From: Antedon mediterranea
Lineage: Eukaryota; Animalia; Echinodermata
Reading direction: 5' to 3'
Assembly: GCF_964355755.1 (NCBI RefSeq)
Contig: NC_092670.1
Coordinates: 24,166,795 to 24,230,794, forward strand
DNA length: 64,000 nucleotides
Shown: piece after piece, positions 2,827-54,992 of the stretch
Layout of the letters: the number at the start of each line of letters is the position of its first letter
Numbering within the stretch: the stretch's first letter is position 1
The notes under the pieces: generated by a model
What the model saw: the letters and a program-made list of their open reading frames with translations, nothing else
What the model was told of the DNA's origin: nothing
Database searches by the model: none
Made by a program: the position numbers and the translations under genes

Positions 2827-5800
2827 TCAGTCGTTTTGATCTTGCTCTCCATATGTTGAATTGTTCTTTAACCTGTTACGACAAAAACACATTATTAAAA
2901 CATAATTTACAACATAAAACAGCACAAAATAAACCGAAGCACCACCTTAGTAGAACCCGTCCTTTGTGACAGTCATATTCAGGGAACTCTTTCCTGTGAA
3001 ACGAATAAGGAACAAGCTGTTTTTATTTAACACTGGGCCAATCCGTATTCAGAGGACACCCCTCAAGGGGACACTTTCTTGTGAATCGAATAAGAAGCAA
3101 TATATTTAACACTACACCCTATCAATGGATACATACCATATTATATTCAGGGGGACTCTCTGGGTCGAGAAGCTGTCCCCTGTCATACGGGTTCTACATT
3201 ACACACATGCTGTTTAAAATGATCGGTGCCCTGTCATGTATTTGTTTTATTGCAAAGTATTGTTCCATATGCTTTTAACGTAATTACGTTCACGAGGACA
3301 CTTAATCGTGTAGATATATACAATTTGTTTTTGTTTATACGACTACGATACGGCAATGTAAACAATCGGCATCTTTGGTTCCATAATCATAACTGGTTTT
3401 CCCATTACTATTCCCATTTTGATAGGACTTTAGTTTTACAGTATTAGCATTTGAAACTATTAGGTTTGAGTTAATTTAATTGGAAAACATGCATATGATG
3501 ATGTTAAAGAAAGATCAATTATCATGACGTCATGATCAAGATTATCAGAAAAAGAAAAAAAAATTGATGGTGGCTAATTATTGCAATTAAATATTAATTG
3601 CAAATGCATGACATTTTAATTATATTATTTTACATGGCCTAACCCGCTTGCATTGTACAGTGTGTGTTTTTTGCACAGTAACGTAATTTTTAAGTTATCG
3701 AATTTATTACTATTTGTACACAAAGAGACCATACCTCGATTTACATGAAAATATATATCATTATTTGTGACGTCATTAAAATCTCGAGTTATCTGTATAT
3801 TTGAGGACCGACACATAAAATAGCACGCCCTCTGTCGGTCTGCATTTGTTCAAATACAGTATTTCTTTTTATTTAGATTTAATTAATGTATTTATTTATA
3901 ATTTGTTTAAACGTGCATATGTGTGTTTGTGTGAAGAATATTAAATAAAATTGAACTGAGATTGCATATTAGAAAAATAATAATGATAAAAATTCCTGTA
4001 ACTTTTATTTTATATTTCAACAAAATGATAATGTCTCTGCGGATACTTACCTCTACATCCATGACACAATACACTATGAATATTGCAAGGCCTTGAGGGC
4101 AATTCAGAATAACGAATATATACTCGAATACTATGCTTGCGCTTGAAAAGGCAAACGGTCCAAAAACCCAAGTAATTCCAAAAACAGGAAGCAGAAAAAT
4201 CGTCGCTTTCATTGTTTTTCTAAAAAGAAGATTAATTATTATGATTAATTATTTTGACACGTTCTATTTACTTTCCACATTTATCAAACTACACGTTATG
4301 ATAATCCATCGATATTTGTGTTGTGTGTTTATTACCAAAAGTTAATTAAATTTAACCTACATAACACGTTTCAAATTGTAATATAATTATATTCTAAACC
4401 TTTAACTCGGGGTTATCTTAGAGTATGATATGAATAATGATGATGTTCAAAAAGCAGTTGTAACATGGTAGATTTAAAACAAATATATCATATACTATTT
4501 TAAATCTCCCTATTGTAACGTTCAAACGTTATTCGCGTTACGCGTACGTGCTTGCGTTGCGTCCTAACAGTGGCACTTACAATGTACTCTCATTAAAACT
4601 CTTCTCATTTCTGCTTTGTCTTGATTTGGACTTCAAATAGACAGTTCTTAGCGTCATCACTAAAATAATCATATTTACCTGTAACAAAAAACATGTTATT
4701 TTGAAATTTATTGATTGATATGAATTAATAATAAGGATACGCATGGTGACTGTTAATGATTTCGCACTTTATTCATTACTGGATAGCACTTAACAAGATT
4801 TGAACAATCAATCATCACCTTACAAAAATGTACCGAGGCCTAATTTATCAAAGTACTGAGATGTTTTCCGGATTTCAAACACGGCAATGCCTCAACGAAT
4901 ACCGGTAGGCCTGTGTACTTTTTTGTAAATGTTCGTAAGTAGTTATCTCTTGATTTCCGATAGGAATTTCACATGACGGATCAATTGATTCTTAATGACG
5001 TCATTGATAATGTTACTTATGTTAATGAGGATTTTTAAAAATGATGCAAGTCAAATTCATATCACTTTACCGTAATTATAATTAAAGCCGGTATTACTAA
5101 AGCATAGACTGCTCCATTGCTTTCGTTTAACCAACATCTGAAATGCAAAAAAAGATTATACTATATTATACTGTTATTTGTGCCATACTGACTGTTTTCG
5201 AACCGCGCGCGTTATAGATTGAAAACGAACGCCGACCTTTTCACGATGAGCAACAAGTCGAAAAGTCATTCTGAGTGTCAGTCAGAATCACGCGCACCCT
5301 TTTCCGCCAGTTCTGTATAATAATAAACGACCGGGCAGTGTTTAGGTGTTGTGAAGTGTGAAGCAAAGTTTAAATGGCTGTTCTATGGATGTTGCTAATT
5401 GACCAGTCTGAACTGTCTCTTGTGTATGGCGCGCCAAGCTGTCATTCATTCGAAAATAAAGATATCTTAGTTTAAAACTAAGATATCTCTATTAATAGAG
5501 ATATCTCTTTTTAGAACTACGATATCTCTATTTAAAACTAAGATATCTCTATTTAAAACTAAGATATCTCTATTAATAGAGATATCTCTATTAATAGAGA
5601 TATCTCTATTAATAGAGATATCTTAGTTTTGTTTCCGGTTCAGTGTTTTATGGGTAATACGATTTTCCATCTATGACTGAGGTAAGGTCAAGTTCCCATA
5701 TTTATGGCGCGCCAAGCTGTCATTTATTCAAGCAATAGAGATATCTTAGTTTTTAATAGAAATATCTTAGTTTTAAATAGAGATATCTTAGTTTTAAATA

Positions 5801-8800
5801 GAGATATCTCTATTAATAGAGATATCTCTATTAACAGAGATATCTCTATTTAAAACTAAGATATCTCTATTAAAAACTAAGATATCTCTATTAAAAACTA
5901 AGATATCTCTATTTAAAACTAAGATATCTTAGTTTTTAATAGAGATATCTCTATTAATAAAGATATCTCTATTAATAGAGATATCTCTATTAAAAACTAA
6001 GATATCTTAGTTTTAAATAGAGATATCTTAGTTTTTAATAGAGATATCTCTATTAATAGAGATATCTTAGTTTTAAACTAAGATATCTTAGTTTTAAACT
6101 AAGATATCTTTATCTCCGAATAAATGACAGCTTGGCGCGCCATACATATTGTAACAATATCTTAATAATAAAAGGCTATAATGAAATAAAATGGAACAGA
6201 GGCAGAAACAGGATGTTTGAGAAAAAATGATGAGGCTTATAATGAGCACATAAACACTTTCCATGCATTCCAACCGAAAAAGGGGATAAAAACCATGGTA
6301 TTTGATCACTATTTAATTATGGATTATAGAAGTTTCTATGTACAATTTTGAATAAGTTTTAGTGAAATAGCTTGGTGGATAATGCCGATCATTTTTAATG
6401 GTAAAACAAAATTGAAATACCTCTAGTTTTCAATGCCTAAAAAATTGTTTATAAAATACGTGTTATTCCAGGCACAGTCAGTGGGGAGGAGTAGAAGATG
6501 TAGATGAAGATAATTGTTATCTCCATGTTTGTAATTTAAACTTGAACACGTCGTCGATACTCATTGCAATGAAATCGACTATCGTCCTTTTGAGCCGTCC
6601 TTATTTTGTACAATATACTCCCGAATATACTATTAATTGGAAAGGGAAAAAATACTAGTCCTTGGATCTACCTTTTAATGATGCATGTTAAATGCGTGCA
6701 ACGTTTAGTACTTTTGTGCAGTATTACAGCTCAAAACTACACGAAATTAATACAGTACAATATCGGCTCTCAACAATTTTATTATAGTATTTTTCAGTTT
6801 TTGTAGCACTGTATAGCTTATACCTTACCTAGAAATCAACAACCATAAACACCTTGGTGGGATGTCCCTAATGGGTCATTACTCTTCCATTCTAAATGAC
6901 ACACTTCCACCACATTCACAACTATACCATTCCCTTCATACTTTGCAACAGGAAACAAAACTAAGATATCTATATTAATAGAGATATCTCTATTAATAGA
7001 GAAATCTCTAATAATAGAGATATCTTAGTTTTTAATAGAGATCTCTATTAATAGAGATATCTCTATTAACAGAGATATCTCTATTAACAGAGATATATCT
7101 CTATTAAAAACTAAGATATCTCTATTAAAAACTAAGATATCTCTATTTAAAACTAAGATATCTCTATTAATAGAGATATCTCTATTATTAGAGATATCTT
7201 AGTTTTAAATAGAGATATCTTAGTTTTAAATAGAGATATCTTAGTTTTTAATAGAGATATCTTAGTTTTAAATAGAGATATCTCTATTTAAAACTAAGAT
7301 ATCTCTATTTAAAACTAAGATATCTCTATTAAAAACTAAGATATCTCTATTGCTTTAATAAATGACAGCTTGGCGCGCCATAATTGTGTTTTAAACTGGT
7401 CGTTTTTTGCATTGAGTACAGGTGGAAACCAAGTTTTAGGAAATCGAATACCAGCCATTAGTCTTAAATGAAAGCCTAAAATAGAATGTCGTGTTTCATT
7501 TTAATTGCAGCGTTGGGAGCGTTATCTATTTTTTTCTTCTGTTGTTTATCATTGTTTTTTCTTTTAAATGTATACATGTAAAGGTCATTATTTTATTGAA
7601 GGTCATCGGAAATAACGGTCACATGATTCGACGGTTACAAACGTGAGCATTTCCGATAGTTAATCAAATCCATTTAATTCGAGGCTAATTATATAGATAT
7701 TTAAAATATTGAAGATGTAATTAGCATTCATATAATCACCTGTCCGTGTTAAACTGGTTATAACAATTTATCATCTGTATAAAATATCGATTAGCCAATC
7801 AGAAAGCTTTACCGTTGGGCTCGTTTGATTGTAAATTATATCGCTTTTTAACTATGATTGGAAAGTTCATTAAAGGATTCTTTTCACACGAATCTTTCGC
7901 ACTTTTAAACTGTGACGTATACCGTGGCAAATTACGCGGCAATTTTACGAGACTGGTCCATAACCCTGGTCATGGCTATAGCTTCTAAGCAATAAACCCC
8001 ACAGAGCACGGTGGACATACAAATATATATTTTTTGTCAGCAAACTGCGCCCCGTAGCAAATTGTTAAACGATTATGTTTCTCGTTAATAGCTGGTGATT
8101 CCACTGTCATGATATCTATTTCCCCAATAAATTCGATTTTAATTCGGCAAGCTCAGATACGATCATGAACGGCTAATGAACAATCATGACCCACCATGTA
8201 TGTTGGCGCCAACTTATATTAATTATCTAACTAAACTGCCCGTCTGATCATTACTGCTTATACAATAGAACCCCTCCTATGGGACCCTATCCAAGAGGGA
8301 CACCCTATTAAGGGGACACTATCACGTGAAACAAAGAGAGTCAATATGTTTTAACACTTTCAGCCAACTCCTTGCTTAATGGGATGTGCCTATTAAGGGG
8401 ACACTATCACGTGGAACGAAGAGAGGCAATATGTTTCTTTTAAATGTATTTATTTATTTATTCATTTCGCTTTAACACTTTTAGCCAACCCCTTGCTTAA
8501 TGGGATGCCTCTATTAAGGTCACACTGACACGTGAAACGAACAAGAGGCATTGTATGTTTTAACACTTTCAGCCAACCCCTTGCTTAATGGGATGCCTCT
8601 ATTAAGGGGACACTGAAACGTGAAACGAACAAGAGGCATTGTATGCTTTAACACTTTCAGCCAACCCCTTGCTTAATGGGATGCCTCTATTAAGGGGACA
8701 CTGACACGTGAAACGAACAAGAAGCATTGTATGTTTTAACATTACCTATTCAGGGGACACCTTTTAAAGGAACAGGTTGTTGTGTCCTGAAGGTGTCCCT

Positions 8801-11800
8801 TTAATAGAGGTCATCTGTATCAATTACTTACGGTGAACTCGATCTGTAATTTCCATCTACGTCAACAGAAAGAGTGGTTACAATAACTAACGCCGATACA
8901 CCGTAGCATACTATAAAATAGTTTCGAGGAACATTTTGCCTGGTTGAGAAGCTTTTAGTGACTTTGAAAGCTATGAATACGGCCTCTGCCATCATCCACA
9001 TAAACATATTGAGAACGGTAAAATGTAAACAGACTCCAACACCTACGCAAACCTGAATATACGGAAGGTAAACAATAACATTATTAATATATACAAAATG
9101 TAACATTATTTAAGATACTCATTTTTGTATTTTTGTATAATGTACTTTGTCAGAAGGCGTTAATTGAGGGGATCCCTCAGGATGTAAATCCTTTTTGAGG
9201 ATTTAGAGGGCTATTATTATTATTACATTTATTTACCCAGGGTAGCCCAAACAGTTAAAAACTGGTTTCCACTGGGGCCCTGCATTTTACGTTATTTTTT
9301 TAATTTTTTTATTACGCTATATAAAATGTAAAAAAGCAATAGCACACAGTTAATAATGTTTGTATTACAATTAAAAATATTGAAAAAAAAAATCTATCCC
9401 TGGTACCATACGCAATGATTGTTTTTTGTTGGTTTTATCTGTTTTTGTCCATGTATGGTATGGTATCGAAATATCAGTTCTCATCATGTCATTGAGTAGA
9501 GTATTATTATGTCAACAGAAAGTACATAAGCTTGTTACTAAAATGTAGGCCTACATATTATTATAATTAAGAGAGATAATAACAGTAGTTATTTTTTCGA
9601 TGGAATTATATAACAAGTTGCGACGGCCTAATGAAGTAAGAGTAACGAGTATTTATCAGGTAGATGATGTTGTGCGTGTGTGGTGATGATGATGGAGTGA
9701 AACCGTATAATATTGCCAATAAATAACTGATGAATAATATAATTATTGTAATAAGGATTATGAAGGACACCAATGACGTCATATAAACAAAATATTACAC
9801 AATGATATGAATATTAACGAGCTTTTTAATATTTACAATTTTGTGTATACTCATTAATTCTACTAATAAACAAAACATAAATTCTCAACCAAGATTGATT
9901 GTGATTATGATAAACCCCAAAGATTCAAAACCAAAAAACCAAAAAATAAAACATTATATGATGCCCTGCATTGCACTTTACAATGTTTAACGCATGATGA
10001 TGAAGATGATAATATCGATCGTTTAATAGTGCGTACTATTTCACGCCATGTGACCCACATTCGTCCAATCAAACGACAGGAATTTATTTAGGTGTATATA
10101 ATAATAAATAAAGTACCGTTTTTGATGTGCTGTCGATACCAGACAAGAACAAAGTATACGTAGCTATCAGATTGATTACCAAGTTTGTGTGGATGAAAAT
10201 ACGTGTTGAGTTCCACAAATCTCTGAAAAAATGGATATTTTATAAATTTCTATTATTTAATTCAACCTATATTCCGTTATTTTTCAAAATGTCATAAGCG
10301 TACAGTATTCGTTGAATCGAAACTTTACAAGTTTTGAACTTGCACAAACCGGCAACCAGAGATGAAGAGCGCTGCCAAACTGTTCAGTATAAGATGGTAT
10401 GTAAAGGCTACCAATAACAGGTGCAACGCGTAAAGAAAGTAGAACGAGGGAAAATTGAACGGAATACATTGGACGTTTATATAGGCCTAGTTGGAGAAAA
10501 CAAAACACTGTTTGTCTTTTGAATTTTTGATGGAATTTATATGAATTATATACTATATTAAGAAGACTTCAAATGTTTGTTTGTTCTTTTTGCGTATAAA
10601 GTGGCATCAACAGAAGAATTTTCTCAGTTTGATCAAGGAATTATATGCGATAATTAAAATGCAAATGTTCGTTTTATGTATTGAATTTGGATTTTATAAC
10701 TGTGGAACAAAATGGACTAGAGCTAAGGTGGTCGATGCAAATGTAAGTTAAGTTAAATTGTGTTATGCCTACTTTGGCTCCTTTCTGAGATTTAGTTGTT
10801 TTGAAAGCAATAAGTAACTATCGTAACCATGGCAAACCAATAGCTTTAGGCAAGAGTTGTAATCATGGAATAATTCAGCTCACCTGAAGAAACAGTAGAC
10901 GGACAGCAGACATACAAGGCTGATCAGAGATATTGACAGTAGCACATAACTAATCGTATCCAACGCAATCATATCGGTGTATGATTTCTATGAGAAAAAA
11001 TATTAAAATATCAATATAAAACAAAATCGACGTTCTCTGATAATATCGCGATAAACATATCTTAGTATGCGAATGAGTGTCTTCAAAAAGATCATTGTTT
11101 CTTTGAACAATTCTATATAATAATAATGGTTTTTAATTTTTAGCCTAAAACCGTTATAGAAAGACATCGGTTATGTTGTAGTTTATTCTATACACTGTAC
11201 CGTGCTATATTTATCATTAGTATTATTATGGATTTCTTTGCTTCAATACATAATCAAAATATTATCCTTAACGTGTTATCCTCATCGTCAACATGTACAG
11301 TTAATATACAGTTCTCATCCGCATCCATAAAGGGTATTTTTTGTTTATTTTGGTTGCGAAGCGCGAAGAACTCGGTAAGCCAATGTGCCAAGGCTCGATT
11401 CTAAATCCAATAATGATTATCATTCCAAATTGCGCACAATTGACACACGTCATTTCATTCTCGTGTATTAAGATGGGTAAACTCCTAAATCTCATCTCAA
11501 CGGTTTTATTATACATTGCGTACGGACTTTGGGTTTCTGTGACTCAGTAAAAAGTGACAACGAACGTATTTCATTTTCAAATCAATGGTGCTTAACTTTC
11601 CCAAGATAATGATAAATGCTGATTATTTTTACGCTTACACTAATAATATTCAGCATAAGCATTTTATATGTATTACTTTTAAGCTGAGTATCTTTCTGCT
11701 ACACCATGTTTAATGGCTTATATTATAGCATCATCCTTCGTACATTCAAATTGTCCTGGAGGTGATATTATGTAAATTAGATTTAATTCTTTGCCTCAAG

Positions 11801-14800
11801 TAAACTTGTATATTAATGATGCTGCCTTTACCTTAGTAAACTTTTGTGTTTGATTATTCATTATGCGTTTGTTTCTAATCAGTAAGTGCCACTTAATGAA
11901 ACATTGTGCTTAAGTTTACAATTAAGTAGTTTTATTTGTTATTATGTGTTTTAATGTATCAATCAAACACACAGGGAAGTCTGAAATGTCATTAGAAATT
12001 AATTAATGATCGTGTTTTTTATTTTTCCTGTTGAAATATTTTATACAATAAAATTCAACATTTCTTTAAAAGTATCTCTCCTTCTCTCCCCACCCACACC
12101 TCTCTCTCACTCTCCCCCTAATTATTGTACTAGAAATCGTCTGTCTGTCTGTCGGTTGGTCCTATATCCCTACATGTGTAATTTTCGCGTACGTATTAAC
12201 AATATGATTACATACGTTATATGAGTTGACCTGTAGCAATATTCCAAAACTTGTGAGGTGGTTACAAACACATTTCACGTCTCCATCACTCATTATTTCA
12301 GTGCTGCATCCATCTGTGGACCAACTCCTGAAATAGAAACAATGTGAATGAATGAATGCGCTGCTTGCACAGCATTTATTATAAAGTATATACAAATATT
12401 TAAAATTTGTTGTTTGTACACAGACAAAGCTTGAATTATAAAAAAAAAACAAAAAAACAAACATGCTAAAAAAAAAACACATCAAAAGACACAAAAACAT
12501 ACAGGCAAAAATGTGTATACCTTAACTAATGTAAAAACATACTCCTATTTTAAGAAGTGAATAGAGGCCACTATCATAGTTAGCCTGTCATAATTGTAAT
12601 TCTGTATAATAATACTATTTGAAATTACCCTGACATTGAAACAATGTGTACTTTAACCAATGTAATAACAAACTTAAGATTCAGCATTAATCGTTTTCGG
12701 TGAGTTACAATGTAAAAACAAACTTCTATTTTAAGAAGAAGAGGCTACTTATCGGTAGGCCTATCATAGTTAGCCTGTCATAATTGTAATTCTGTATAAC
12801 AATACTATTTAAAATTTCCCTTGAAACAACAGTAGGTCTAATACACTCACTTGTACGTGTTGTTGATGAAAGAACAATTTGCGTTTAATGGTTTGTCTTC
12901 TATATAGTTTGCTAGTGCCTGTAAGTATACAAAAATACAAATTTGAATTAGGTCGATATAATAAAATAAGAACTAACTAACTAACTCACAAGCGCCTTGA
13001 GCATTTTTGTGGATATGTGCCCTATATAAATCTTATTATTATTACTAAATAACTAACTAACTGTAATTGACTATTTAGAATTAAAATAATCTCAAGATGA
13101 ACCTTTTTTTGCGTAAACGATGTACTCTGTATCTCAAATTTGGTACGATTAGAATAAACGCTTATTGACGTGAAATGACCAACCATTTGCACTCCTTCCA
13201 ATTCACTAAAATAAACAAACAAAACATTAGAAAAGGTTTTTAATTTTGAAATATATCATAACTTATATAATTACATTTACGATATGAAGTACACTTGGTA
13301 TTACAATTTGAAAATTAAATGTAACTACAATCTCCTTGTGTTATCTGGATAAACCGACATGTTTACATTTCTCAAAAACTGATAATTAAATTTATCTAAC
13401 ATCCCCGTAATCAAATGGTATGATCGAAAATTTCAACCGCCTATGACCATTGAAAAAAAAAATTTGAGGCAATTTCCCATCAACATTTGCTATAATAGTA
13501 TCGAACTTTAAAAAAATCTAAATAAGAAACTAATGTTTTCTATTATAATAATATTCAATCATATTGACCTTTTGGAAGCATTGATGATTTGCAAGTCAAC
13601 ACGTAGAACAACGGAATGGCAATTTGAACCTGTAATTGGAAATTAAATTTCCTCGTAAAAAACAATGATTACAATTTCGTTAAAATGAACTTGAGAAATG
13701 TTTAAACACAACCAACTCTTTATTTGGGAAACACCGGTGGATGTTAAGGTGACACCCTTAGGTGTATGACTACAGGGTAAGCAGCAGTAAGCAGCGTTCC
13801 GCAAACTTTTGATTTCGTGGCCTAAAATCCGGTTCCCGGGACCAAACCGCGATCCAACTACTCAGCTGGACCAGGACAATACTTAAGAATATGGACCTGT
13901 AGGTAACCGGAAATTGCATTGTAATTTAATTGAAGAGTAAACTTGCGCTGATGATCCACCGAAATTTAGCGCAGTCCGTGTAACGCACACGACGCATGTC
14001 ACCGGATTCGCGTCACACTCTCAAAACATTTTACATTACATCGCTTGGGCGTTGGGTATGTTTACGATATTTTTAGCAAGGTCAAACCTTTACAGTAAAT
14101 TGTAACTCACATGCCTATTGATGAAAATCTAACTACAATGAAGTAGCTTTACGTAAGAAGTAAGTCACATATTTTGTAATACTCTGACGTCAGAGTAGTT
14201 CCCAGTCTCTCATTTCTGAGCCAAAGAATATGCAATTCTCTTTAGGATTATGCAAACATAATAAATATTTCATCAAATCGTTAATATATAGATGACAACT
14301 TACAATTGTTCACGTCGATTTGAAACGCTAATTCATCTCCGACATCAGACCAGTTTCTGTTGTTAAGTGAAAAGACTGCAGTATCTACAAAAAAAGCCCG
14401 ATTCATTATTTCAAAAGTATAAACAGTAAGTTTCAACGTTTTCAGATCAGTTTTTTCCACAAATAAAACGCATCGAAGAAGGCAAATTGATATATAGCAC
14501 TATTTAATAAACAATTGTAATATTTAAAGAATAAAAAAATATGATAAAATAGAAAACACTATGTTATAACATGTATGAATATATAGTCTATCGATGCATT
14601 TTTCAGTACTCTGCTTTTGGATTTATTGATAAAAAATTTATATTTATTGATAACATTGATACAGATACCAAAATCATTTGTATTGTCAGGTGATTTTTGT
14701 CAAATTATGTGAATTAAATGAATAATAAAATTGATAGTTGCTTACTCAAATATTTGTAATTACTTTGGCTCTCAGTCTGACCGGGTTGTAACTCATTTAG

Positions 14801-17800
14801 AAGCGATTGTCCTATGATGTCTGCTGATAATGACAACTGAAACAACTCCTACATAGTAAAATAATATGATTACAGTTTATGAACATTATTTTGTGCCTAA
14901 GCGTTACCTAGATAAATAGACTAATATCATAGACTATTCTTCTTGAGGAGCAAGATTTAACTCGAAAAGTTTAGAAATTCTCTCCATAGAAGTATACGCA
15001 AATGATGCCATTGCATTCAATACGGTATAGCTCTAAATAACACGTACCAGTTTTGGTGTTCCCTTTTCTCCGCTTCCCCTTAAGTCTGCCAAAGACAACA
15101 GGTTTTTCAATGTTTGGTGACCATATTTCCCGCTGCTTTTTGTTCCAATTTCCATTGTTGCATCTGTATGCTTGTTCTCTTCAGTTGTTTTCTAAATCAA
15201 TTAATTTGTTTCACAATAAATTCCAAGTAAACGTAGTTTTATATATTTTGAATGAATTCAAAATAAGATAAAGTATTTTTCAGTTTTTATTGTCTATGAT
15301 TAATTTAAATCATAGTAGGAAAATGTGTTATTAATTGATTCGTTCTGGATATAGGCCTAATCTATATTAAAGTATTTGTTTAATTTTAACTGTTGGTACT
15401 TGTACAAAATTCTAATTAGAATGGAAAACTGTATTATTATCATATGATTCGAATAATACCTGTTAATGAAATTATCAGATCTCTGCTTCATTATTAATAA
15501 TTGTTATATGCTATGTTTTAAGTTTCTTTGTTTATTGATGGTATCCATCTGTCCGTGCTGTATATAGACTTACAAGCACAATCATATTGTACTGAATTAA
15601 TACATTATACACATGTTGGCACACAAGTACGTGATTCAAAACCTGGCCTTATTCCACCGTCAGGACAATTCAATTTTAATATGTGAATCTTTGAAACCAT
15701 TTAATACAGCGTGCTTGGTGGTTTTATGGAACTAAACGTTATTGTATTTAGTAATACACCATTTGGTATTAAGATATTACTATATTTATATTAATATTTA
15801 TAACCATACTCATTAATAATTCATGGCAATTGCCTTCTCATTTATATTCTAATAAATGTCTCTTCACCTACAAAAATAACGTAAAAGATGTATTTAGATG
15901 TATTTTGAAAGTCTCTTTCGTACCTATGGTTATAGATAAACAGCCTTTTCTCCTCGAGGATCAAAATACTCGAAGAGTAGTAAATTCATTGAACACCCCT
16001 CTCTAAAAATTACCGTTTGGTAATTTTCTTAATGTTCAAATGAAATGTAAGTAGCCTTTAAGATTAATCTTATAGTCTCTTGTAAACAACATTTCTTACC
16101 GGTGCTATTTTAGAAAATTCTTCATCATCCAATGACGTAATGTCCATGATTTCCGTCATCACAATTGTTTCAAATGCAATACCAACATCTAATTGAAATG
16201 AGATAATATTGCAATTCTTGCAGTAGTGATTTCCATTTAAATCATTCATTAATTGAATGAGGTTTTGCATTATTTCTTATACAAAAAATTAAAAAAAAAC
16301 TGTCGTTTCCGGTGTTTTGGTTCATCCATCTGTCAATTTACGTTATACCAATCCATCCAACAATGTATTCACATGTTTTGTTCTTTTTTTTATCCATTCT
16401 TTATCGTGTATAATAGTCATTCATGTTCTCTGAAAAACTGTCAACATATTACACGACAACAGAATATACGCTGAAATGTTCTTACGTGCACAATAACCTT
16501 CCTATGAGCTTAAAATAAATTCTACCAGATGCATACCTTCGATGTTGCTTTTCTTTTTACATACTGCGAATCCGTCGTGCCAGTTTGGATTTCTGTGTGT
16601 TTTACTCCTCCACCATTTGCCGCTCTTTGATTCAATCGATACACCTTAGATAATAAAGATAACATTTATGATACCAGTTATTAGTAAATGAAGAATAACT
16701 AGAATATCTCTTTTATTTTATTCATGTTTTTTTTCCAATGAACCTGGTGATTGATTTAAAATATGTATTCTGAGTGTAAGCAGGGAAGAATGAATTTCAT
16801 TCTTGCCTGGTGTAAGTATTCTCACCATATTTCTTGTAAGAATCAAAATGTTTGACCCTAGGTTTCCATGGTGGAGTGAATGTTAAGTTCGTACCATCTA
16901 GCCAAACAAATTTTGCATCAGAAAGCTATGATAAAAAGTTGAGCATTAGTTTCAATGTTAATGACTTTATAGACCTTATGATCACAATAATTTAGCAGGC
17001 ATTTTCTGTCGGTTGGTAAGTTTTTAATACAAATGAACGTGTTATAGTACTTACAGTTACATTTTCCTTGACGGTTTCTATATTATATAAACCAATATAG
17101 CAATGTGTGCTGTTTTGAGAACACAAGTTCTTTACAAAGTTGTTCTCGATTTCATTAAGTATTGATGTCAAATTTGAGTTCATTTTCTCACATTCGTTTG
17201 ATGCATTCTTCCAACTACTATCATTAAATAGGTAGTAACAATGTTTATTGTGGTATTTCCAATTAGGTTCGCATTCTAATCGAATAATAAATAATAACAA
17301 TGGTAAAAAAAAGCTCTTATTCCCCCAGTCTGTTATCTTTACATTTTTTTAAGATGCTAAAATTATGTTTATATTACATCTTTACTAAATGATTAACTGA
17401 ACCTTTCCAGGCTCAATATTCCGTATAATCTTAATCCAAACAGTTATATAATACTTGGATATTTATAAATAATGTAAGACCTTAAAATATTACCTGCAGC
17501 AAATCTGCTTCTTTTTTTACATACTGCGAATCCGTCGTGTCGTTTTGGATTGTTGTATTTTCTACTCATGTGCCAGTTTCCGCTCTCTGATTCAATCGAT
17601 ACACCTGTATAAGAAAAAGTAAGGAATAAGTATAAGGTAATTGTAATGTATTTGTTATCGCATTTGTGATGACTGTAATTTAAAAATCTAGGGAGAACGA
17701 TGAAACTAATTGATGATGTGTATATAAATATTTTACAATAGCATTAGTATTATTTTTACCGTATTCCTTGTAAGAATCAAAACTTGTTTCTGTCAATGGT

Positions 17801-20800
17801 TTAGTGAATGTTAAGTTCGTACCATCTGCCCAAACAAATTCTGCATCAGGAAGCTATGATAAAAAGTTGAGTAAGCATGAGTATTTTAGTGATTTTATAG
17901 ACCTTATGATCACTAGTTTAGCAGTCAAGTGGTTGGTAAGTTTGTAATACAAATGAACATGTTAGGCCTATTAGTACTTACAGTTACATTTTCCTTGACG
18001 GTTTCTATATTATATAAACCAATATAGCAATGTGTGCTGTTTTGAGAACACAAGTTCTTTACAAAGTTGTTTTCGCTTTCATTAAGTATTGATGCCAAAG
18101 TTGAGTTCATTTTCTTACATTCTGTTGATGCATTCTGCCAACTACTGTCATTAAATACGTAGTAACAATGCTCATTGTGGCAACTCCAATCAGCTTCACA
18201 ATCTAAATAGAATGATACTGTCACATTTGTTTTTAACCATAACGACCCACTGCTATGTATAAGCGAATTCGAATAAGCGCCCCGTTTTGAATAAATACCC
18301 CCCACCCCTACCCCCATAGAACATGATAACCCCCCACCCCGGGGATTTATTTCCTCGATTAAACGCCCCGCCACATGCACACAGTGTCAACACATTTCTA
18401 TTTGTAGTAGAACTCATTGATTGACATGATCTACAATTCACCAAACATTTTGAAGTTTTACTTTATTTATCACTTCTCGATATTAATTGTGTTGTATTTT
18501 TTAATATCTATGGGGTATTTATTTGAGTATACATGTTCCCATGTAAAAAAAATAAACACCTACCAGAATAAACACCCCCATACTTAATATTCCATATAAT
18601 CTTAACATATAAAAGCAATTACTCAAATTATTAGAATAAATAAGTTAATAATGTTATTATTATGTACCTACAATAATTTCAGATTTTTCATTTTTCAAAT
18701 TGTATTGTTTAATATCAATAAGTCACAATAAAATAACAATAATAATGGTATTAGTGTATTTTTAGCAGTAATTAATAGGATTAAGGAGAGGCCATCATTT
18801 AGTATTAATACCCTTTTTAATGGGATTAAATTACAGCTCGTCTTTTAATTAACACCATTTTTAGATTATACTTAATTAATTTTAATACTATTAGGTACTA
18901 TGTACCTAAAACGAGTAAAAAAACTCACTATCGGTTGAAATGTGTGCACCTTTTCCCGACATATAATGAGTTTGTTTTTCGTTTAGAAACTGAATTGTGT
19001 TAGGTTATGCATGTTATGGTAAAATGTAAATAAATTGAAGTAGTATTATTCTATTAACAATTTACTCACATATAGCCATAAAAGCTATAGCTGTTAAAAA
19101 TGTATAGTCCCCCCCCCCCCACCCCAAAAAAAGTTGAAAATTAAAGATTTGAAAAAAAAAAGGAATTTCAATGACCCACTTCGCAGGTTTTAATAAAATT
19201 AATAAGTTACGTAGAAAAGAAAAAAAAAACAACATGTTTTTACTTCTAAAAATACAAAGTACACTTAGTCACATATAGCTATAAAAGCTATAGCTGTTAA
19301 AGATGTATTGTCCCCCCAAAAAAGTTGAAAAATAAAGATTAATTAAATAAAAATGTCAATAACCCACTTTGCAGGTGTTAATAAAATTAATAACTTACGT
19401 CAGAAAAGAAAAAAAAAATGTTTTTACTTGTAAAAAGACAAAATAAACGGTTAAATTCAACCAAAAACCCATTGACTTCATTTCATTTACTTCATATACA
19501 TATTTATTCAGTTATTATATATGACAACAACAACTGGGGCCCTCACTAGAATCAATAGCTTGTCTCATGAGGGCCCCTACAATACAAGTAAGCAGAAATA
19601 CATAAAAGAAAAAACATTATAAAACAATAAACAAAATATAAGTCAATCACGAAGGAGAAACAATACAGAGCAGTCAGTTTGACTATGTTTTGCTTTGAAT
19701 TATAGTTTTTGGGTAAATAATTTAGTTTTTCGATCCAATTTGTTGTCAAAGTTAATAACTATTATGTGAAATTAAAATGGCATAAGACTATTCAACAAAA
19801 ATATTTAAAAACTTTTTTCGGGTTGACAATATAATATTCAATATTCCCATTGTTAGATGTGTAGAGGGTAGGGAGAGAGAGTAGTATTACTTTCAATTAA
19901 GTTGATTATAACAAACAATCGTTGGCCGAATTCATCTCACCCTAAAGATTGGTTCCGTGAACGCAACGCAAATACGTAAGCGCATCGGAAGTAATTCGAC
20001 CAATCATAGCGCGATATATCATTATCACTCCCGTCGTGATTGGTCAAATGTCTTGCGTTGCTTCTCCTATAACACATATGCATGCACCGTAAGGGAAGTC
20101 CTTAGATATTTTAAGTATGAAGAGATTGTCATTGACAAAAAAAAATCTATTTTTTAAGGAAACCAAAAAAAAAAGTCAATTTGAAATCTTGTATACTTTT
20201 AGTTCTTTATCATTAGTTTACTAGACATTAACGTTGTAATTGTTGCTGCCGTTGTTTTTTTAACCGGATCCTGATCGGGCCTTGTAAGGAAGACACTGAT
20301 TTTATTCTATGGGGTCACAACGTGCTTCAATCCTATTAGACAATTGTTACGCACGCTTTTTACAACTGAATACATTTAAGTTAAAATTGCTGATTTACTG
20401 AGTTATTGCGAGTATAATCACTGTAGAGTATATTTACTTTAGAACAGATAGGACTAAGACTTACATTTCAAATAACAGTAAAATCGTAGTATGTGCATCA
20501 TTACATTATTTTCAAGGTTGGGACAGTTTAAATTCAGTTTCTCATAAAATTATATACTCTACTGAGAACTTAGCTGGTAATTATGACAATGAATAATTGA
20601 TCCAATTCTTTTGAATATTTTAACAGAATTCATAATCGCGGAAGTACAGTAATATTAATTTGTTTACCCTTGTGTTTGTTGTTGTAGAATGACTGTTATT
20701 GTGATTTTAATATATTAACGCATAATACCTGTTGTTTCTGATTGATCAATTGTGTCTTATGCGGATTCACCCATGACAGAATGATACTGGCAATTATTAT

Positions 20801-24503: not shown

Positions 24504-26387
24504 CTAGCCTCCACGCAGACGGCCCGTCATTTGAATGGTACTCTCATTGGCGATGCCATACGATTGTAAATTTCGTTGGTCTTCGAGATTTTTGCCGCCA
24601 AATACCAACAACTGTTGACTTGGAGAAATTCCAGTTTTTATCTCGATTTTCTTTTTCAATTCACGCACGAGGGTAGATCTCTTCATGCCCGAAAATGTAA
24701 GTGTATTTCCGTTGGTGGTCTTGACGAATACTTGAAAGTTGTCGATTGTGATGTCCTGGCAGTCTCTGTTGAGCAAGTAAAGTAAATTTAAACGTAACTT
24801 ACTAGTATTTAAATAGAAAAATGGTAGTGCATTGGTAATTTGTATCTAATTCATGAAATAGTAGGCATCCGCATAAGCTTTTTCCGTTCTCATACTTTAA
24901 AAAACATTCACATTTTATTTCAAATCCAATTTATTGATGTCATCATACGTCGATATAGGCTTACAGCAATTTATTTCTCGGGTGGTGGTCAACCACTAAA
25001 CAATTCTTCGAAAGGCCAAAGGTTAAGTTAACTATTTGCAATATTCGAACCTAATATTATCAATGACCTCGTTGGCCTCTTAATTGTTGTCGCCATTATA
25101 ATCATCGTTATCATTATCATCGTCATCATCATATTCATCATTATCATCATCATCGTCATCGTCATCATCATCATCGTCGTCGTCTTCGTCGTCATCAGCA
25201 TCATCATCATCATCGTCGTCGTCATAATCGAATCATTTTCATCATTGTCATAAATAATGATTGATCATTACTCACCGTCCTTGTAAGAGAATTTCTATGA
25301 TCTTTTGATCTGATTGGACGATTTCTCTCAACCATCTCAACACGTTTCTGAGTGATTCTTGAGTAAACTGCTCAAAAAGATTCTCTGATGGATTGTGGAA
25401 GTTTGGAAGATCGTATTTCTCCATGTATTTGATGAGCGTCCGCAGCAGGTCCTTAAAGCGATCATGAAGATAATCTTGGTGCCATTGTGTAACGCTTGTA
25501 TCATCGTTAAGATACAGCATGCATGTCTTTAGATGGTATGACGACAACATTCCAAGTTGAGAAGCACCTCTCTTTACTCGAATCGTCTTCAAGATCTTCA
25601 GACAAGCTCTGCGGCATTCATTCTGCCAATCCATATCACTTATGATTATCTGTTCCTTCTGTGTGTAACTCCTACGCCACAGCTGATCGTAGATGTTCTG
25701 TCCAGGTGCCTGTCGAGAGTTTGGACTTTCTGCTTTTGGGTGTCTCTTTGCTACGTACCTGGTGCCATCGAGTTCGATGCACGGCACAATATCAATCGAT
25801 AGTTGTTTTCTGCTGTCATATGTAACATTTATTGTTAAGGCTGGTCCATTAACACTTTGTCTAGCAGTAATCCCAAACAATTCTTGGTTTATCTGGTTCA
25901 CTACTCCCTGAACCAAGGATTGCATCTGTCGAAATGTGGATATCGGGTTGATATAGCCATTAACAACGCAGTCGTTCAGATGTGTGGCACCATTTCTAAC
26001 TTTCTTTATGAAATAATAGCCTGACGAGTGAGTATTGCATCCCTCGGCATTTTCTTCTGCTTTCCACAGATCAGTGCCCATCTTTATAGGGACCAGAAGG
26101 TCAAATTCATCCTCTCGTATCACCTTCAAACCCTCATAAGAGCTTCCTTGGTGGTAAATTGTTCCAAACACGAAGTTAGATGTCTTGAAATTATCTTCCA
26201 GGATCAGTTTGATCTTCTCAACGACAGTCTTAGCGCGCTTTTGTTCAACAACAGGAATGCTCACATGTTCGTGGAAGTATTTTCTCAAAGCGTTAAGAAG
26301 TGGATCTCGGCTGCTTTCGAGCTGTCCAATTTGATTTTCTTCTTCTCCATCGGTATCCCGTTTACGAACATGTTGTTTATTCGCCAT
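24504..26387 (-). CDS. cGAS-like receptor (cGLR, Mab-21 NTase) fused to a C-terminal ubiquitin-like domain ending RLRGG; 2 coding exons (26387-25276, 24765-24504), 457 aa
   Basis: cGAS/Mab-21 motifs HQGSSYEGLKVIREDEFDLLVP, SIDIVP, WRRSY..KE, LKILK, LSSYHLKT, LPNF..SENLF. The ORF's TGA is part of the donor CG|GTGAGT (phase 2); the acceptor tttacttgctcaacAG|A GAC TGC restores the Ubl frame. Start context is accATGg with an in-frame TAA just upstream; an acceptor at 26405 implies a non-coding first exon. Confidence 0.9.
25095..25250. repeat. Degenerate (CAT/CGT)n trinucleotide microsatellite in the cGLR-Ubl intron
   Basis: Directly visible; accounts for the spurious Met/Thr-rich ORF 25028..25225. 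Confidence 0.9.
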
Positions 26388-27131
26388 GGTACAATTTTAA
26401 CTTTCTGAAAGTATAGCAATATTTGTTTTTGGTGAAACATTACAGAATATAGATTCCTACACAAGCATGTAGGCCTAAACTTGAAATACGAATTTATTAA
26501 TTTTTTTATTTAGTAATAATTATTATACAGATATTGCCTGCTTAGAGGTGAAATATACTATTTGAAATCCCGAGGGAATGGTATTTGCAACCAATCACGT
26601 TCACGTATTTACATAGCCTATGTAATATAAACATATTCAGCATGAATAGCATTTAAATTGTGATAATATCACAATGTAAATTCTATTCTAAAATCCATTT
26701 TGTAAATGTTCTTACAAATGGTCCATGATGAGATAACAATTTAGAAAGGCCCTATATAGACAAGACAATTTATCATTTCAAATTTTTAAATGTATACAGT
26801 TATTTGAAAATGTATTTAGAAAAACATACGATATGCCTAAAGGTGTTTACCCCACCCACATATGCATAGTTTGGATTTTATTCTTCCCCACCCTCCCTGA
26901 CATTTCTGGCTAAAACACTTGTCGACAGTAATTGAAATACATTTTGCACTAAGCCTATATATTCCAAACCATAAATCAAAATGATTATAGGCCTATTAAG
27001 CAATATTTATTCAAAACAACGCATTCATCAGACATGACATGACAATCCTTTATCTTATAATGAGCTCATTATGATTGATTGTATATATACAGATTATAGA
27101 TTTTTAAGGCTTGCTTGTCTGCGAGAGAACT

Positions 27132-28102
27132 TGGAATTTCCAATTGAATGACGTAATCACACGTCACGGCAATAAACTCGCTGAAGCAAATTTGACACCG
27201 ACGTGACGTACATTATTACATAAGTTGGGAATTCCCATTCTTGTGTAATAATAAACGTCAAAAGCCTAGTAATTCTACCATGTCAAAACTGTTTTGGAAA
27301 TCGCCAAAGCACGTTAATGGAATTAATGGCTGAGTAGTACAGTATGATAAAAAATTTATTATTCTTATTATTCTTATTGTATCTAAAAACTCTGTAAATA
27401 AAATGTTTATAGTTCACAATTTTAGCGGTAAATGCAGTATTCGATTTTGAAACAGTTGGATGAAAAAAGTGGGGCACAATTAATTTATATATAATAAATC
27501 ATAACATTTATCATAAATCATGACATTTATCATAACATGAGTGAATGTCATTGGGGATATGCCTGCACAGTATACATTTAATTAGTGGCGTCTTTGGCAT
27601 TTCACACATTATCATTAGTCTTATTATGGTCATCAAAATATCATAAATTATAATATTAATAATCTAATGTTTTTCAGCTCTCATCGTTTTCATAACAGCA
27701 AAATTGTAGTACAATCACAGAGTTCATTTCCCTCCGATATTGTGTATTTAAAATGGACTTGCTCTATGTAGGCCTATCGGTTATTTTTCTTAAATAGCCC
27801 TCTTAAATTAATTATACAAAACAATATAAAATGTTTTTAATTATTTCATTACATAATAAACATATGAATAACAACTAACATGACATGAAGACAATAACAC
27901 GTACGTGGTATCGCATCATAATATGTAACGTTCTTGTACTTACATGTATTTGAATTGTAATTTCTCTCTGTGCTCCGTACGTATTTAAACGTAATAGGGC
28001 CTACGCTCTTCGTTGAAGGTTGTGAGTAGACTAAGAGCATATTGCACAAATAATACTCTTATGTCGACATCAGGGAATTTCCAAACGAACATGGAAATCC
28101 CC
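27132..28102. promoter_or_regulatory. Cluster of NF-kB/Rel-type sites and CRE-like sites upstream of cGLR-Ubl
   Basis: TGGAATTTCC 27132-27141, GGGAATTCCC 27227-27236, GGGAATTTCC 28073-28082, GGAAATCCCC 28093-28102; TGACGTAA 27149-27156 and TGACGTA at about 27204. Function is inferred. Confidence 0.6.
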
Positions 28103-49781: not shown

Positions 49782-52700
49782 TCACAAAGATTCAATTTTT
49801 TCAAATAGGTTTTTGTTCATGGACATATAGTTTAGTATGTAATCCCGTACAACTACATGGTAGTTCTGGACACCAAAGAGAATATAACTCAAAGCCCTAA
49901 AAAGACAGTTGCCGTCCCCTCTCATATTAACAACTTTAGTAGGCCTGGCTGCCTTGTCCATTTCACATTTTAAGTGAGTTTTGTGAAAATTTTTGACATT
50001 GATACCAAATGGTGCTGCCTTTTCAAGCTGCCAATTGGCATCGACAGGAAAGAATAACTTTCTTGAAGTTTTCGTGTTGAGGTATACCACATCACTATCA
50101 GATACAGGCCTACTGTTGTCATGGTCATCATCCGGTGCGACATTATCATTGTCTAATGTAGGTATGTTATCGTGATTATCCAGTGTGATATCATCGTTCT
50201 TGGATGTAGGTATGTTAATGTGATCATCCGGTGTGATATCATAATTCTTGGATGTAGGTCTGTTATCGTTATCATCAACATTCTTGGATGTAGGTATGTT
50301 AATAATGTGATCATCCGGTGTGATATCACCATTCTTGGATGTAGGTATGTTATCATGGTGCGTTACTTCAGGTGGGATGTCTGGCGTTCGCTTTCGTTTC
50401 TTTGGAGGGAGATGCTTATCATTGGTATTACATTTCTGTTTAGTGCTTGATGATGGACAGTTCAAAGAGGTTGTTTTATCGGACTTGTAATGTCTGATCT
50501 TGTTTCCGTTAACAATAGCCCTTCTTCCTTTTAGTCGATATGTATTGTGAGTGAGGACTTTTTCTATAATATATGGACCAGTCCATCGAGCATTAAGTTT
50601 GCCTCCCTTTCTTGACAAATTTCTGGAATTCTGCAAGAGCACTTGATCTCCTGCATAGTACGTGTTGCTTTTAACACCAGCATCATGATAATGTTTTTGC
50701 TTTTTCTGTGCTTTTTTGATATTTTCTGATGCCTTTCTCCTTGAATCTTTGAGTTTCAAAAAAGCGTCCACTCTTATTTTTAAAGGAACAGTTCCGGATA
50801 TGTCATCTTTATTAGACGAAACGATGGGAATACGTAATTCTACAGGCAACACAGCCTTTCTACCGTAAACTAATGAGAATGGGTCACATTTCGTAGACTT
50901 GTGCTCGGATGTTCTGTAGGCAAACAACACGTATGGGAGTTGTATATCCCAGTCATTTTGGTCTGCGTTGGTCAACGTCATAAGCATTGTGCAAAGTGTT
51001 CTGTTAAAGCGCTCCGTTTGCCCGCCTGTTTGAGGATGGTATGGTGAGGCAACTCTGTGGTCTACCCCAATCAGCTTACAGAAGCTGTCATTCAGCTCAT
51101 TACAAAACTCTCTACCCTGGTCTGTAATCAATATAGAAGGTGTTCCATGTCTGCAGACAAAATCAATAAAAGATCTCAGCACTGTTTTAGCAGATTTATC
51201 TGGAATTGCATCAGCTTCCACCCATTTGGTAAGGTACTCCGTAAATACAAGTAAGTACCGATTACCTGAAACACAGCAAATAATAATATAATAAGCCGTA
51301 ATAATAGTAGTGTCAAAATGTCATGATGAGATGTACAACACCCGAACTGTACGAATGAAATAACAATAATAATAACAATATTAATATCAATAAATATAAT
51401 AAGAACAAGAACAATAATAATATCGTGGATTTACATAGCGCCTAATGTTGTAAAACCTCTATGCGCTGAACAGTATTACCCCAGTCATGGTTTGGATCAA
51501 ATTAAAACAGGCAGAAATAAAGATTATTACAGTATAGCCATAATCGATGTAAATCCGGTGACAATAATAAGAGCATCTGATTCTTGGTAAATCTAGTTTT
51601 TGTTGACAGTGTAAAAAAGAGAACTGTCATAATTTTAGTTTAGTTAACAATTTCAAGAAACCTCACAGAAATTGCGCTTGTGCCTTTACAATAATAAATT
51701 TAAGTTCAGCCCTATTACAATAAAGGCCGAACAGAACTAATTATTAACTGTAATTTTAGGCCCTGAAGAATGAATTACAAAGTTTTCTGAACGTATTTCA
51801 TTCATGTCTTCTTGCTTTTTACTTTTACGTTTTGATTTAGCTTTTTTATCCAGTCACAGCATTTTTGTTTTTCAGTAATTTGTCATGAGATACCTTACCA
51901 TTTTCTGTCTTTACCAAAGGCCCAACAATATCCATACCGATCTGTCTGAAAGCAGTATCTGTTACGGGTATAGGTTGAAGTGGCACTTTTGCTTTTTTTA
52001 AAACTTCTTTCCGTTGGCACTGATCACAGGCGGCTATAAAATTACGAACACCATCAAATGACCCCTTCCAATAATACCTTTCGCGTATCTTTTTCCAACT
52101 GTTAAAAAAAAAAAAAAATGTGTTTATTGTATTGATGATATTCAATCTCTTTGTAGGTTTACTATTGACCTTAAAACTGTATTATGGATTCTTTAAATAT
52201 TTTAATTTTATTTTGTTTTTTAATATTATTTATTATTTATTACCGCAGTTCACATCACCATTCTCATCAATGCATTATAATAACATTACAGTTTGGCGTT
52301 CCATATATTTTAACTTTTCGTTTAAGGCAAGCACTGGGCACAACTGATTAATTAACTTTTAATATTTATCTATGTTTCTAGTTTTTTTATTTGACAATGA
52401 TAAATGAATATTGAAAAGAGAAAAGATACCTTCTATGAAAAATGTCCATCAGTCCGTGATGATTCCGTGTCACATTGTACCAGGGAGATTTACATCTCCC
52501 TGATTGTACCGTGTTTACATTCTAAATACCCCCATATAAACTTCAAATTGAGTGCAGCCTCCCATACAAAATAACTACGCCCTCAATCTGGTAATAATTC
52601 ACTCAGGCAATAAAAAACTAACTTGAAAAGTATAAATAATTAATTGTCCTACTAGAATTATTGTGTACGCTTGGTGAATGTGCGACAGAGTAGATATAAA

Positions 52701-54992
52701 AATCGCCACTTTTTTTTTAAAATAAACAAGGGGAAATATATACGTTTTAACACTACATACTGGTTAAATTTATTTATTTTTAAAATGTAGAGGACACCCT
52801 ATTAAGGAAACCGGGTACTTTTTAGTGAGCCACAATGGTAGATTGCGAGAGGTAGTGGTCCTTTAAAATAGGTGGTCACTTACGAAAGATGTGGTCGATA
52901 AGGGAGGTGGTCGCTTACGATATGTGATCGATTATGAGAAGCGGTCTCCTAACAGAGAGGTCGTTTATTAGAAGTGGTCACTTAAGAGAGGTGATTTATA
53001 CAAGAGTTGGTATATTATGAGAAGCGGTCCATTTAGAGATATGGTGGTCTTCTAAAAGAGATCATCACTTACGAGAGGCGGTCGAAAATATAAAGCGGTC
53101 GCTTACGAGAGTTGTGGTTGTTAAGAGAGGTGGTCGCTTACTACGAGAGGTGGTCGATTATGAGAAGCGGTCCATAATGAGAGGATGTGATCACTTACAA
53201 TAGTTGGTCGATTATGGGAAGCGATCCCTTAACAGAGACGATGGCCGTTTAATAGAGGTGGTCACCCAAAAAAGTTGTCGTTACGAGAGAGGAAGTCGAT
53301 TATGAGAAACGGTCCCTTAAAAGAGTTGGTTGCTTACGATGTGTGGTCGTTTTAGAAAGTTGGTCGGTTACGAGACGTGGATAGATGGATAGCTAAGTAA
53401 ACAGATGCATTTGCACATGATTTAGACATTTAGGTTTGTAAAATATATATTTTCTACATTAGCTGGCGATAGTCCTACATTAGCTGGGATGCAATTTTCG
53501 TTCCTACATTCGTTGTTGATCGTTCTACATGGTGTTAATTTTTTTCATTACATAAGCTGCAGGTGGTTTTACTCCATTACCGGGGGATTGGAAACTAGTT
53601 TTGTTATTGAAAATGCGTTTTTTTTAAAGAAGTATTCCCTAAAAAAAAATGTAATAATCCACTTTAAAGTTACATAATAAAAGTCTTCTTCCTTACATTT
53701 TTTTTGTCAAATTGTGTTTTCTTTCATAAGTATACATTTTAAACGAACGAAAGTTAATACTGATATGGCTTTTTGCATTATGAATGAGCAACTAATATTG
53801 AACATATTTATTATACCAAGACCTGAATAAGTTTTCATTCGGGAAGTATTTGTATCACTATTTAAAACTAAGATATCTCTCATGAGGGATATCTCTATAT
53901 TACTTACTTACCAAGATATTTAGAATGGAAGATTCTTGTCCCATTCGGAATATCACAAGTGGATTTTTTTCTGTGTTAGTTATGCAGTGGGCACGTGTAG
54001 AGTACCGTATATGAACTGTTATAAAACTAAAACATTACTATTATAGATAGAGCTAGTTGTACTGTATTCTTCTTGGTTTTTCGAGGTGTAATAAGCCTAC
54101 AAAAAAATATCTATTAACATAGATATTTCTTTTAAAAAGTAAGACATCTTAGTTTTCAATTGAAATAATCTATCTTTATTAAAAGAGATATCTTAATTTT
54201 GAACTAAAGATATATGCGTTGTGTAGCACTGTGTAAATTATATAATAATAATCTGTCAAATTATTGAAACAGTGCTCATATTCGGAACATTTTTGATTAA
54301 TTATTGAATGCCAATATATGTTTTGTATTTTTTACATGTGATATTTTATGTTCAACTTCAATATATTTATACAATTAATTGCGATAATATATTGAGTAGA
54401 AATTATTATCGACTTAACATATTTTTCATTCATGGAGGTATAAAAATATGTTTGAATCTATATATAAAATACTAACTTCATAATGTACACGGTCATTATA
54501 CATTTTTCAATTGATAAGTATTAGTTATTATTCATTTAATTCATTCATTTAATCATTTGTTTCGAATTCTGTGGTCCACAGAAAGTAAAATTACGTATAA
54601 AATCATTTAAAAACAATGCTGTACTAATTACTAATACTCATCTCAGGATGGCATTCCACCTGGCCAAACATATAAACAGTTTTAAAGTCACCCAGAAACT
54701 TATCGAAGCTTAAATATTATTTAATTGACAAACTTTAAACTTACGTTTTGTTGACACCCAAGTGACCACCATGTGCCTGCTTATGGATACTGTTTAACAC
54801 TTCGTTTTTTTCTTTCGGTAACAATACACGCAACAATCTACCAGAATGTTGTTTGTAATACAAGATATCACGAAGAATTGTAAAGTTCTTGGCTTTCCGT
54901 CGCAAACTTCGTTTTAATATTTCAGAATAATTTACAGGATAAACGTTGTTTTGTAGATAGTTTCTCAAGGCATCAAACTCATGATCGGCCAT
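49782..54992 (-). CDS. Ginger1 transposase (Gypsy-like DDE integrase, H2C2 Zn finger, GPY motif, partial OTU); 3 exons, 643 aa
   Basis: Exons 54992-54745 (phase 2), 52098-51899 (phase 1) and 51265-49782 join in frame (1932 nt). H..HGGHLG / CDQC, GMDIVGP, ITDQGREF, YHPQTGGQTERFN, WTGPYII, OTU MRGDGNCLFRALS. Confidence 0.9.
50105..50358 (-). repeat. Coding minisatellite in the integrase-OTU linker
   Basis: About 5 imperfect repeats of PTSKNxDITPDDHxNI. Confidence 0.85.
52830..53600 (+). repeat. gagaggtggtcg-rich repeat, homologous to the foldback at 56480-57510
   Basis: Tandem degenerate gagaggtggtcgcttac units ending ttacgagacgtggatagatggatagcta, which recurs at about 57298; reverse complement at about 56690-56780. 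Confidence 0.7.
53860..54212. mobile_element. Degraded member of the AGATATCT TIR family in Ginger intron 1
   Basis: ctatttaaaactaagatatctct motifs; about 53921-53956 resembles the reverse complement of about 6859-6894. Confidence 0.55.

Follow-up and report, generated by a model that had tools for sequence, protein, structure and literature searches.

Enzymes of the cGAS-like kind are known to be conjugated through their own C-termini in bacterial CBASS systems, and the nearest animal case is the OASL protein of birds. In CBASS, Cap2 conjugates the tail of the CD-NTase, and this conjugation promotes cGAMP synthesis (as described in PMC12355090). Chicken OASL is a 59 kDa protein whose C-terminus reads LRLRGG, and it is reported to form conjugates through this motif, chiefly with itself, when overexpressed in DF-1 cells (PMC8764230). 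With regard to activating enzymes, UBA1 reads the Ile44 patch of ubiquitin together with R42, R72 and R74, activation of ISG15 and FAT10 proceeds even though their corresponding patch is polar, and UBA6 tolerates residues other than Arg at position 72 (PMC12355090).

The locus described here joins a cGAS-like receptor (cGLR) to a ubiquitin-like domain (Ubl) that ends in a free diglycine. It resides in a window of 64,000 nt, meaning the whole stretch of DNA analysed, from Antedon mediterranea, a comatulid crinoid of the Antedonidae (GCF_964355755.1, NC_092670.1, 24,166,795-24,230,794, forward strand). The features relevant to the following sections are listed below by window position.

26387-25272, minus strand: nucleotidyltransferase (NTase) open reading frame of 371 codons from the ATG at 26387, with its stop inside the donor CG/GTGAGT.
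25276-26387, minus strand: coding exon that supplies residues 1-371, the Mab-21/cGLR nucleotidyltransferase of the MiD51-related clade (Pfam and fold matches).
25791-26147, minus strand: active-site motif G81-S82, E94, D96, D199 (sequence; homolog alignment).
24845-24504, minus strand: Ubl frame (open reading frame list).
24766-25275, minus strand: phase-2 GT-AG intron of 510 nt containing a GAT/GAC simple repeat (sequence; skipped by an X1 contig).
24504-24765, minus strand: coding exon for linker, ubiquitin-like domain and stop (Pfam ubiquitin 1e-20; 37/76 versus ubiquitin).
24504-24521, minus strand: free C-terminal R-L-R-G-G and TAG stop (sequence; predicted disordered).
26395-26425, minus strand: probable splice acceptor (26405/26404) of the 5'-UTR; a stop codon in frame lies ahead of the ATG (sequence; X1 contigs end at 26404 and other runs reach 26407, a weak hint from one run).
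27133-27260, no strand assigned: site cluster with an NF-kB-like palindrome at 27227-27236, a GGAAATTCC site at 27141 and four TGACGT motifs (pattern match).
61803-63400, minus strand: second, broken cGLR-Ubl paralog, with its NTase in three frames and its start missing.

The two open reading frames are one spliced gene, as the original prediction had proposed. Joining them at the donor CG/GTGAGT (25276/25275) and the acceptor AACAG/A (24766/24765) yields a coding sequence of 1374 nt, whose translation is letter for letter that of P0001, a 457-residue NCBI model from Antedon mediterranea that is named cGAS-like receptor 3 and carries PF03281, PF20266 and PF00240. This model derives from the same genome and so is not independent of the window sequence. 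Spliced sequence is provided by one contig of run X1, which joins 24765 to 25276 and thereby skips a 510-base segment bounded by CT..AC on the plus strand, equivalent to GT-AG on the gene strand; the same run has zero depth in bins 24819-25169. None of the runs listed is recorded as RNA; the assignment of X1 as RNA is a guess (probable RNA), and the data consist of contigs, which carry no strand or level information. The joint is missing in the other three of the four runs (X2, X3 and X5, one sample), which cover 24819-25052. The phase-2 intron is matched in phase and place by the second locus of the window, and fused models are also present in Anneissia japonica.

All four runs carry a second haplotype or close paralog across 25300-26500, with many substitutions and with small indels near 26024-26030 and 26310-26322. 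Among the differences listed (40 of 110 rows), 25 are coding, 13 of them synonymous and 12 not, and none falls in the tail or in the three catalytic acids. Farther upstream, a high-copy short interspersed element occupies 26520-26630 inside the probable 5'-UTR intron, where depth is very high and loose ends are many.

The NTase half matches Mab-21 (8e-17), Mab-21_C (2e-17) and MID51-like_C (4e-13) in Pfam, and both its core (PF03281) and its C-terminal helix bundle (PF20266) score above the cut-off. The GS motif and acidic triad that were said to be kept are present as G81, S82, E94, D96 and D199, in the contexts QGS (preceded by His rather than a hydrophobic residue), E94-F-D96-L and I-D199-I, and G81, S82, D96 and D199 are invariant in 26/26 aligned homologs. 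By sequence, the closest solved relatives are the membrane-anchored protein MiD51 (4e-36, about 30% identity), then a cGLR1 (3e-19) and cGAS. A structure model built from 26 homologs reached a pLDDT of 82.9 and a pTM of 0.75 (an earlier model from seven sequences only reached pLDDT 58), and its predicted fold superimposes on MiD51 with Z 33.8 and rmsd 2.3 A over 316 residues and on mouse cGAS with Z 31.6 and rmsd 2.3 over 313 aligned residues. E94 and D96, positions occupied by His and Gln in MiD51, are intact here, and no transmembrane segment is found in the 457-residue protein (best 19-residue hydropathy 0.62). In the ESM Atlas, OASL appears at 0.85, which is a lead only, and there is no usable feature match after OAS clusters are left out. 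The NTase has a pI of 8.57; nucleic-acid-sensing cGLRs are given a pI above 8.5 by Li et al. 2023 (PMC9980059), who use a different pI algorithm. The spacing between D96 and D199 is 100, and although the same authors write 50-90, their curated Table S1 lists orthologs that are spaced alike (PMC9980059). By motif and predicted fold the protein is a cGLR, predicted to be catalytic, and not a member of the OASL, MiD51 or CBASS groups.

The second exon encodes a domain that matches PF00240 at 1e-20 and has strands and a helix predicted at 380-452, consistent with a beta-grasp. The count of 37/76 identities to ubiquitin in the original alignment is reproduced against a ubiquitin unit, with a one-residue insertion. 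A short linker, of low confidence in the predicted model, separates this domain from the NTase. Behind the folded beta-grasp the tail is predicted to be disordered (pLDDT <50 at 454-457), and a flexible, conserved diglycine in this position is the signature of a conjugated modifier. Residues equivalent to R72, L73, R74, G75, G76 and K48 are kept, whereas the surface that UBA1 contacts carries the changes L8T, R42L, I44V, H68Q, V70T and L71G, and the Ubls of clade B have I44Q/T. The Ubl thus lacks the full set of UBA1-type substrate features (the Ile44 patch with R42, R72 and R74). The Arg72 equivalent noted earlier is indeed kept here but is not invariant, being present in 5/7 family members and replaced by Gly in the other 2/7. 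The Ubl is very basic (pI 9.7-10.4).

Homology searches place this protein in a small family. The first search gave 19 proteins from 1245 candidates, of which seven, all from Antedon or Anneissia, have a ubiquitin domain. Two profile searches (25 and 9 matches) together with an exhaustive search added two Antedon isoform models, P0138 and P0170. The exhaustive search, which used the fused alignment, was swamped by polyubiquitins and is a poor test of range, because only 9/150 matches listed were best in the NTase. In total, 171 proteins were fetched, 29 of which match the NTase and nine of which match both domains. Conservation of the diglycine in homologs is borne out by 7/9 of these double-domain proteins, six ending in L-R-G-G and one in L-R-G-G-R. 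The other two, P0138 and P0170, are encoded on another Antedon contig and have a Ubl without the diglycine followed by a long hydrophobic, repetitive tail, which is possibly a membrane anchor or a gene-model artefact; the motif is therefore not required for the fold. Three close paralogs in clade B (P0004, P0014 and P0015) are modelled without a Ubl, and so the tag looks dispensable in some copies. Reading P0004 as a Ubl-less splice isoform is unsupported, because it has its own accession and is not a named isoform.

In the NTase tree, the diglycine fusions fall in two clades, each of which holds both species (support 100/99), and all Ubls share the insertion. On these grounds the fusion most likely precedes both the duplication of the paralogs and the split of the two crinoid families. 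Independent acquisition of the Ubl by each species is rejected: an AU test against a grouping of the two Antedon diglycine proteins gave p 2e-9, although the group was named after the first tree had been seen and the tree omitted 5/24 rows of the earlier set. Some invertebrate proteins of the MiD51 clade (P0016 from Owenia, P0017, P0019 and the second half of P0026) combine acidic catalytic residues with an N-terminal segment of mild hydrophobicity, which suggests that MiD49/51 descend from an active membrane-anchored cGLR. Tandem double-cGLR proteins were encountered as well (P0026 from Anneissia, and P0129).

The tail and the body of the Ubl have changed very differently. All seven diglycine members keep the ubiquitin residue at 4/4 of positions 73-76, compared with 13/72 positions of the body (Fisher p 0.0019), in a sample of seven sequences from two species that includes three near-identical Anneissia sequences. 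A variant of the test limited to non-core positions (1/47 kept) uses a partly circular core list and is given no weight here. Pairs of Ubls within the family are as low as 28/76 identical. The second window locus has a phase-2 intron at 62514-62065 and an intact Ubl exon that ends R-L-R-G-G-R-stop and is 83/87 identical to P0011. Between the two window loci, the Ubl exon DNA is 111/231 identical and the residue is changed in 46/77 codons, whereas R-L-R-G-G is identical even though 4/5 of its codons differ synonymously. In these alignments the last four residues stay fixed while the rest of the Ubl drifts, which argues for selection acting on the diglycine end.

The original prediction knew of no described cGLR-Ubl with a diglycine. 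No describing paper was found in the full-text literature, a search in which most subscription journals lay outside coverage, but the architecture itself had been catalogued. Table S2 of Li et al. 2023, as available with PMC9980059, has 3,832 rows for 3,138 cGLRs, including six ubiquitin/UBQ rows, of which four are shown or matched as Anneissia and two lie within the same accession run. It thus already holds the architecture, apparently without comment or test. The main text of the preprint (10.1101/2023.02.22.529553, PMC9980059) contains neither 'ubiquit' nor 'Anneissia', the passages covered make no remark on the diglycine, and the table of the biochemical screen in the same source includes no Anneissia protein. 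Given the origin of the six rows, the cGLR-Ubl architecture looks crinoid-specific within the survey of Li et al., and our own searches are too insensitive to exclude other groups.

Several observations suggest an immune role for cGLR-Ubl proteins, namely their family, the turnover of paralogs, the presence of 47 cGLR and 3 STING genes in Anneissia, and marginal kB-like sites upstream. The kB pattern matches six times in the window against 1.84 expected, a count that 4/100 shuffles reach and in which the palindrome is counted twice, and four of the window's 33 TGACGT/ACGTCA motifs fall in 27100-27300. The upstream cluster is a possible immune-inducible promoter. Two more NF-kB-like sites lie at 28073-28102, roughly 0.85 kb farther upstream than the first cluster. 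Elsewhere in the window, adhesion GPCR exons with C-type lectin, GPS and 7tm_2 domains occupy 3907-18386 (minus strand), and LTR retroelement fragments with an integrase core occupy 49782-55124 (minus strand). No Cap2 or Cap3 genes reside beside the cGLR among the long open reading frames scanned in the window, which encode GPCR, lectin and integrase sequences as well as the second cGLR.

That the cGLR-Ubl tail is activated by an E1 and conjugated is our preferred explanation, held at about even odds. For the enzyme half, synthesis of a nucleotide second messenger is predicted. The free L-R-G-G tail would be charged by an E1 of the host and attached to lysines on other proteins or on the enzyme itself, which would in this way serve as its own ubiquitin-like modifier. 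The basic NTase (pI 8.6) might be turned on by nucleic acid and signal to STING, and conjugation could tether, cluster or turn over the enzyme, perhaps substituting for the N-terminal membrane anchor of MiD51-type relatives. The paralog ending in G-G-R, a form that we take to resemble the precursor of a ubiquitin-like modifier, would be a pro-form trimmed by a deubiquitinase. Conjugation is favoured by the diglycine behind a beta-grasp, by this G-G-R form and by the examples of chicken OASL and CBASS Cap2. Against it stand the eroded UBA1-contact surface, R72G in 2/7 members, the close paralogs that lack a Ubl and the D96-D199 spacing of 100. Because of the eroded surface, use of plain UBA1 is disfavoured, and a permissive UBA6-type enzyme fits the Ubl better as the candidate E1. 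A fuller proposal, which we hold only tentatively, is that crinoids rebuilt CBASS-style conjugation by capturing a ubiquitin exon. The protein would be charged by an E1, perhaps dedicated or of the UBA6 type, and ligated to host or pathogen proteins on infection, thereby priming or placing cyclic dinucleotide synthesis; deubiquitinases would serve as the off switch, and sister paralogs would have swapped the C-terminal slot for a membrane tail.

Conservation of the tail is equally predicted if the diglycine stays free and is read non-covalently. The tail might mimic the C-terminus of unanchored ubiquitin and be bound by a ZnF-UBP domain of the HDAC6 or USP5 type, or presumably by a diglycine degron reader, so that the enzyme is localised or removed. 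The ZnF-UBP of HDAC6 recognises the unanchored diglycine as well as an RLRGG peptide while hardly touching the body of ubiquitin (PMC3268394), a mode that suits a conserved tail on a drifting body that has lost its E1-contact surface. However, such binding gives no reason for retaining an entire folded beta-grasp, conserved core included, ahead of the tail; processing would still be required for the G-G-R members; and the OASL precedent is covalent (PMC8764230). We judge this main rival to conjugation unlikely, though with a real chance of being correct. Less probable still is that the Ubl acts in regulation or in binding partners, like that of mammalian OASL, with a tail merely inherited from the donor ubiquitin gene. 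The persistence of the Ubl without diglycine in P0138 and P0170 fits this explanation, as does the impaired RNA binding that follows removal of the Ubl region from duck and ostrich OASL (cited in PMC8764230), and a Ubl of pI 9.7-10.4 could aid nucleic-acid binding. Passive inheritance conflicts with a tail kept at 4/4 positions against 13/72 in the body and with synonymous turnover of the tail codons, and the motif is missing from mammalian OASL itself (PMC8764230).

Two further explanations carry little weight. The tail could be bait for pathogen deubiquitinases or ligases, with cleavage or modification activating the enzyme; the tail of OASL is a substrate of viral OTU proteases (PMC8764230), and a variable Ubl surface with paralog turnover would fit an arms race, but a protease has nothing to cut at a free diglycine before it is conjugated or extended. 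We regard this explanation as very improbable. It is scarcely credible that the protein is a non-catalytic adaptor of mitochondrial fission like MiD49/51. MiD51 is the best match by sequence (4e-36) and fold (Z 33.8), and some Anneissia models carry the name MID51-like, but the protein is without a transmembrane segment, retains E94 and D96 where MiD51 has His and Gln, and belongs to a multi-copy family with fast turnover.

The cGLR-Ubl protein shares features with several described systems. MiD51 (with MiD49; MIEF1/2) is the closest solved structure, but it is without two catalytic acids, whereas the cGLR-Ubl protein has these acids, has no anchor and adds a Ubl. Other animal cGLRs share its Mab-21 NTase, full catalytic motif and basic pI, and the Anneissia orthologs P0002, P0003 and P0005 appear in Table S1 of Li et al. 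(PMC9980059). ISG15 and FAT10 are likewise immune Ubls with a diglycine and a polar surface for the Ile44 patch (PMC12355090), but these are stand-alone tandem modifiers with known E1s and no attached enzyme. Avian OASL, as described in PMC8764230, is also a large immune protein of nucleotidyltransferase fold with a C-terminal Ubl and a free diglycine. However, it is a vertebrate protein with a tandem Ubl rather than one, it keeps L71/R72 where cGLR-Ubl proteins vary, and it belongs to the OAS superfamily, whose origin is separate from that of cGLRs (PMC10732462). No PF10421 (OAS1_C) match and a single ubiquitin stretch are found in the cGLR-Ubl protein. Type II CBASS CD-NTases, which come with Cap2/Cap3, are cGAS-like enzymes whose C-terminus is adenylated and conjugated in bacteria, as would be the case here, but the bacterial enzyme is without a beta-grasp and relies on an operon-encoded E1-E2, in contrast to a spliced animal gene with a Ubl. 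With its exon captured from ubiquitin, the crinoid protein would depend on the host's machinery, and the likeness to CBASS would therefore be convergence rather than inheritance.

By analogy, the cGLR-Ubl protein likely works as avian OASL or the Cap2-conjugated CD-NTase does. If so, it would represent a third independent arrival at C-terminal conjugation of such an enzyme, and no earlier one would be from the animal cGAS branch. Outside vertebrates, it would also supply a ubiquitin-like modifier that carries an enzyme. The family also has built-in controls, with members that end in GG, members that end in GG-R, members whose Ubl is followed by a membrane tail and members with no Ubl, and the effect of conjugation on a cyclic dinucleotide synthase is therefore directly testable with few purified proteins.
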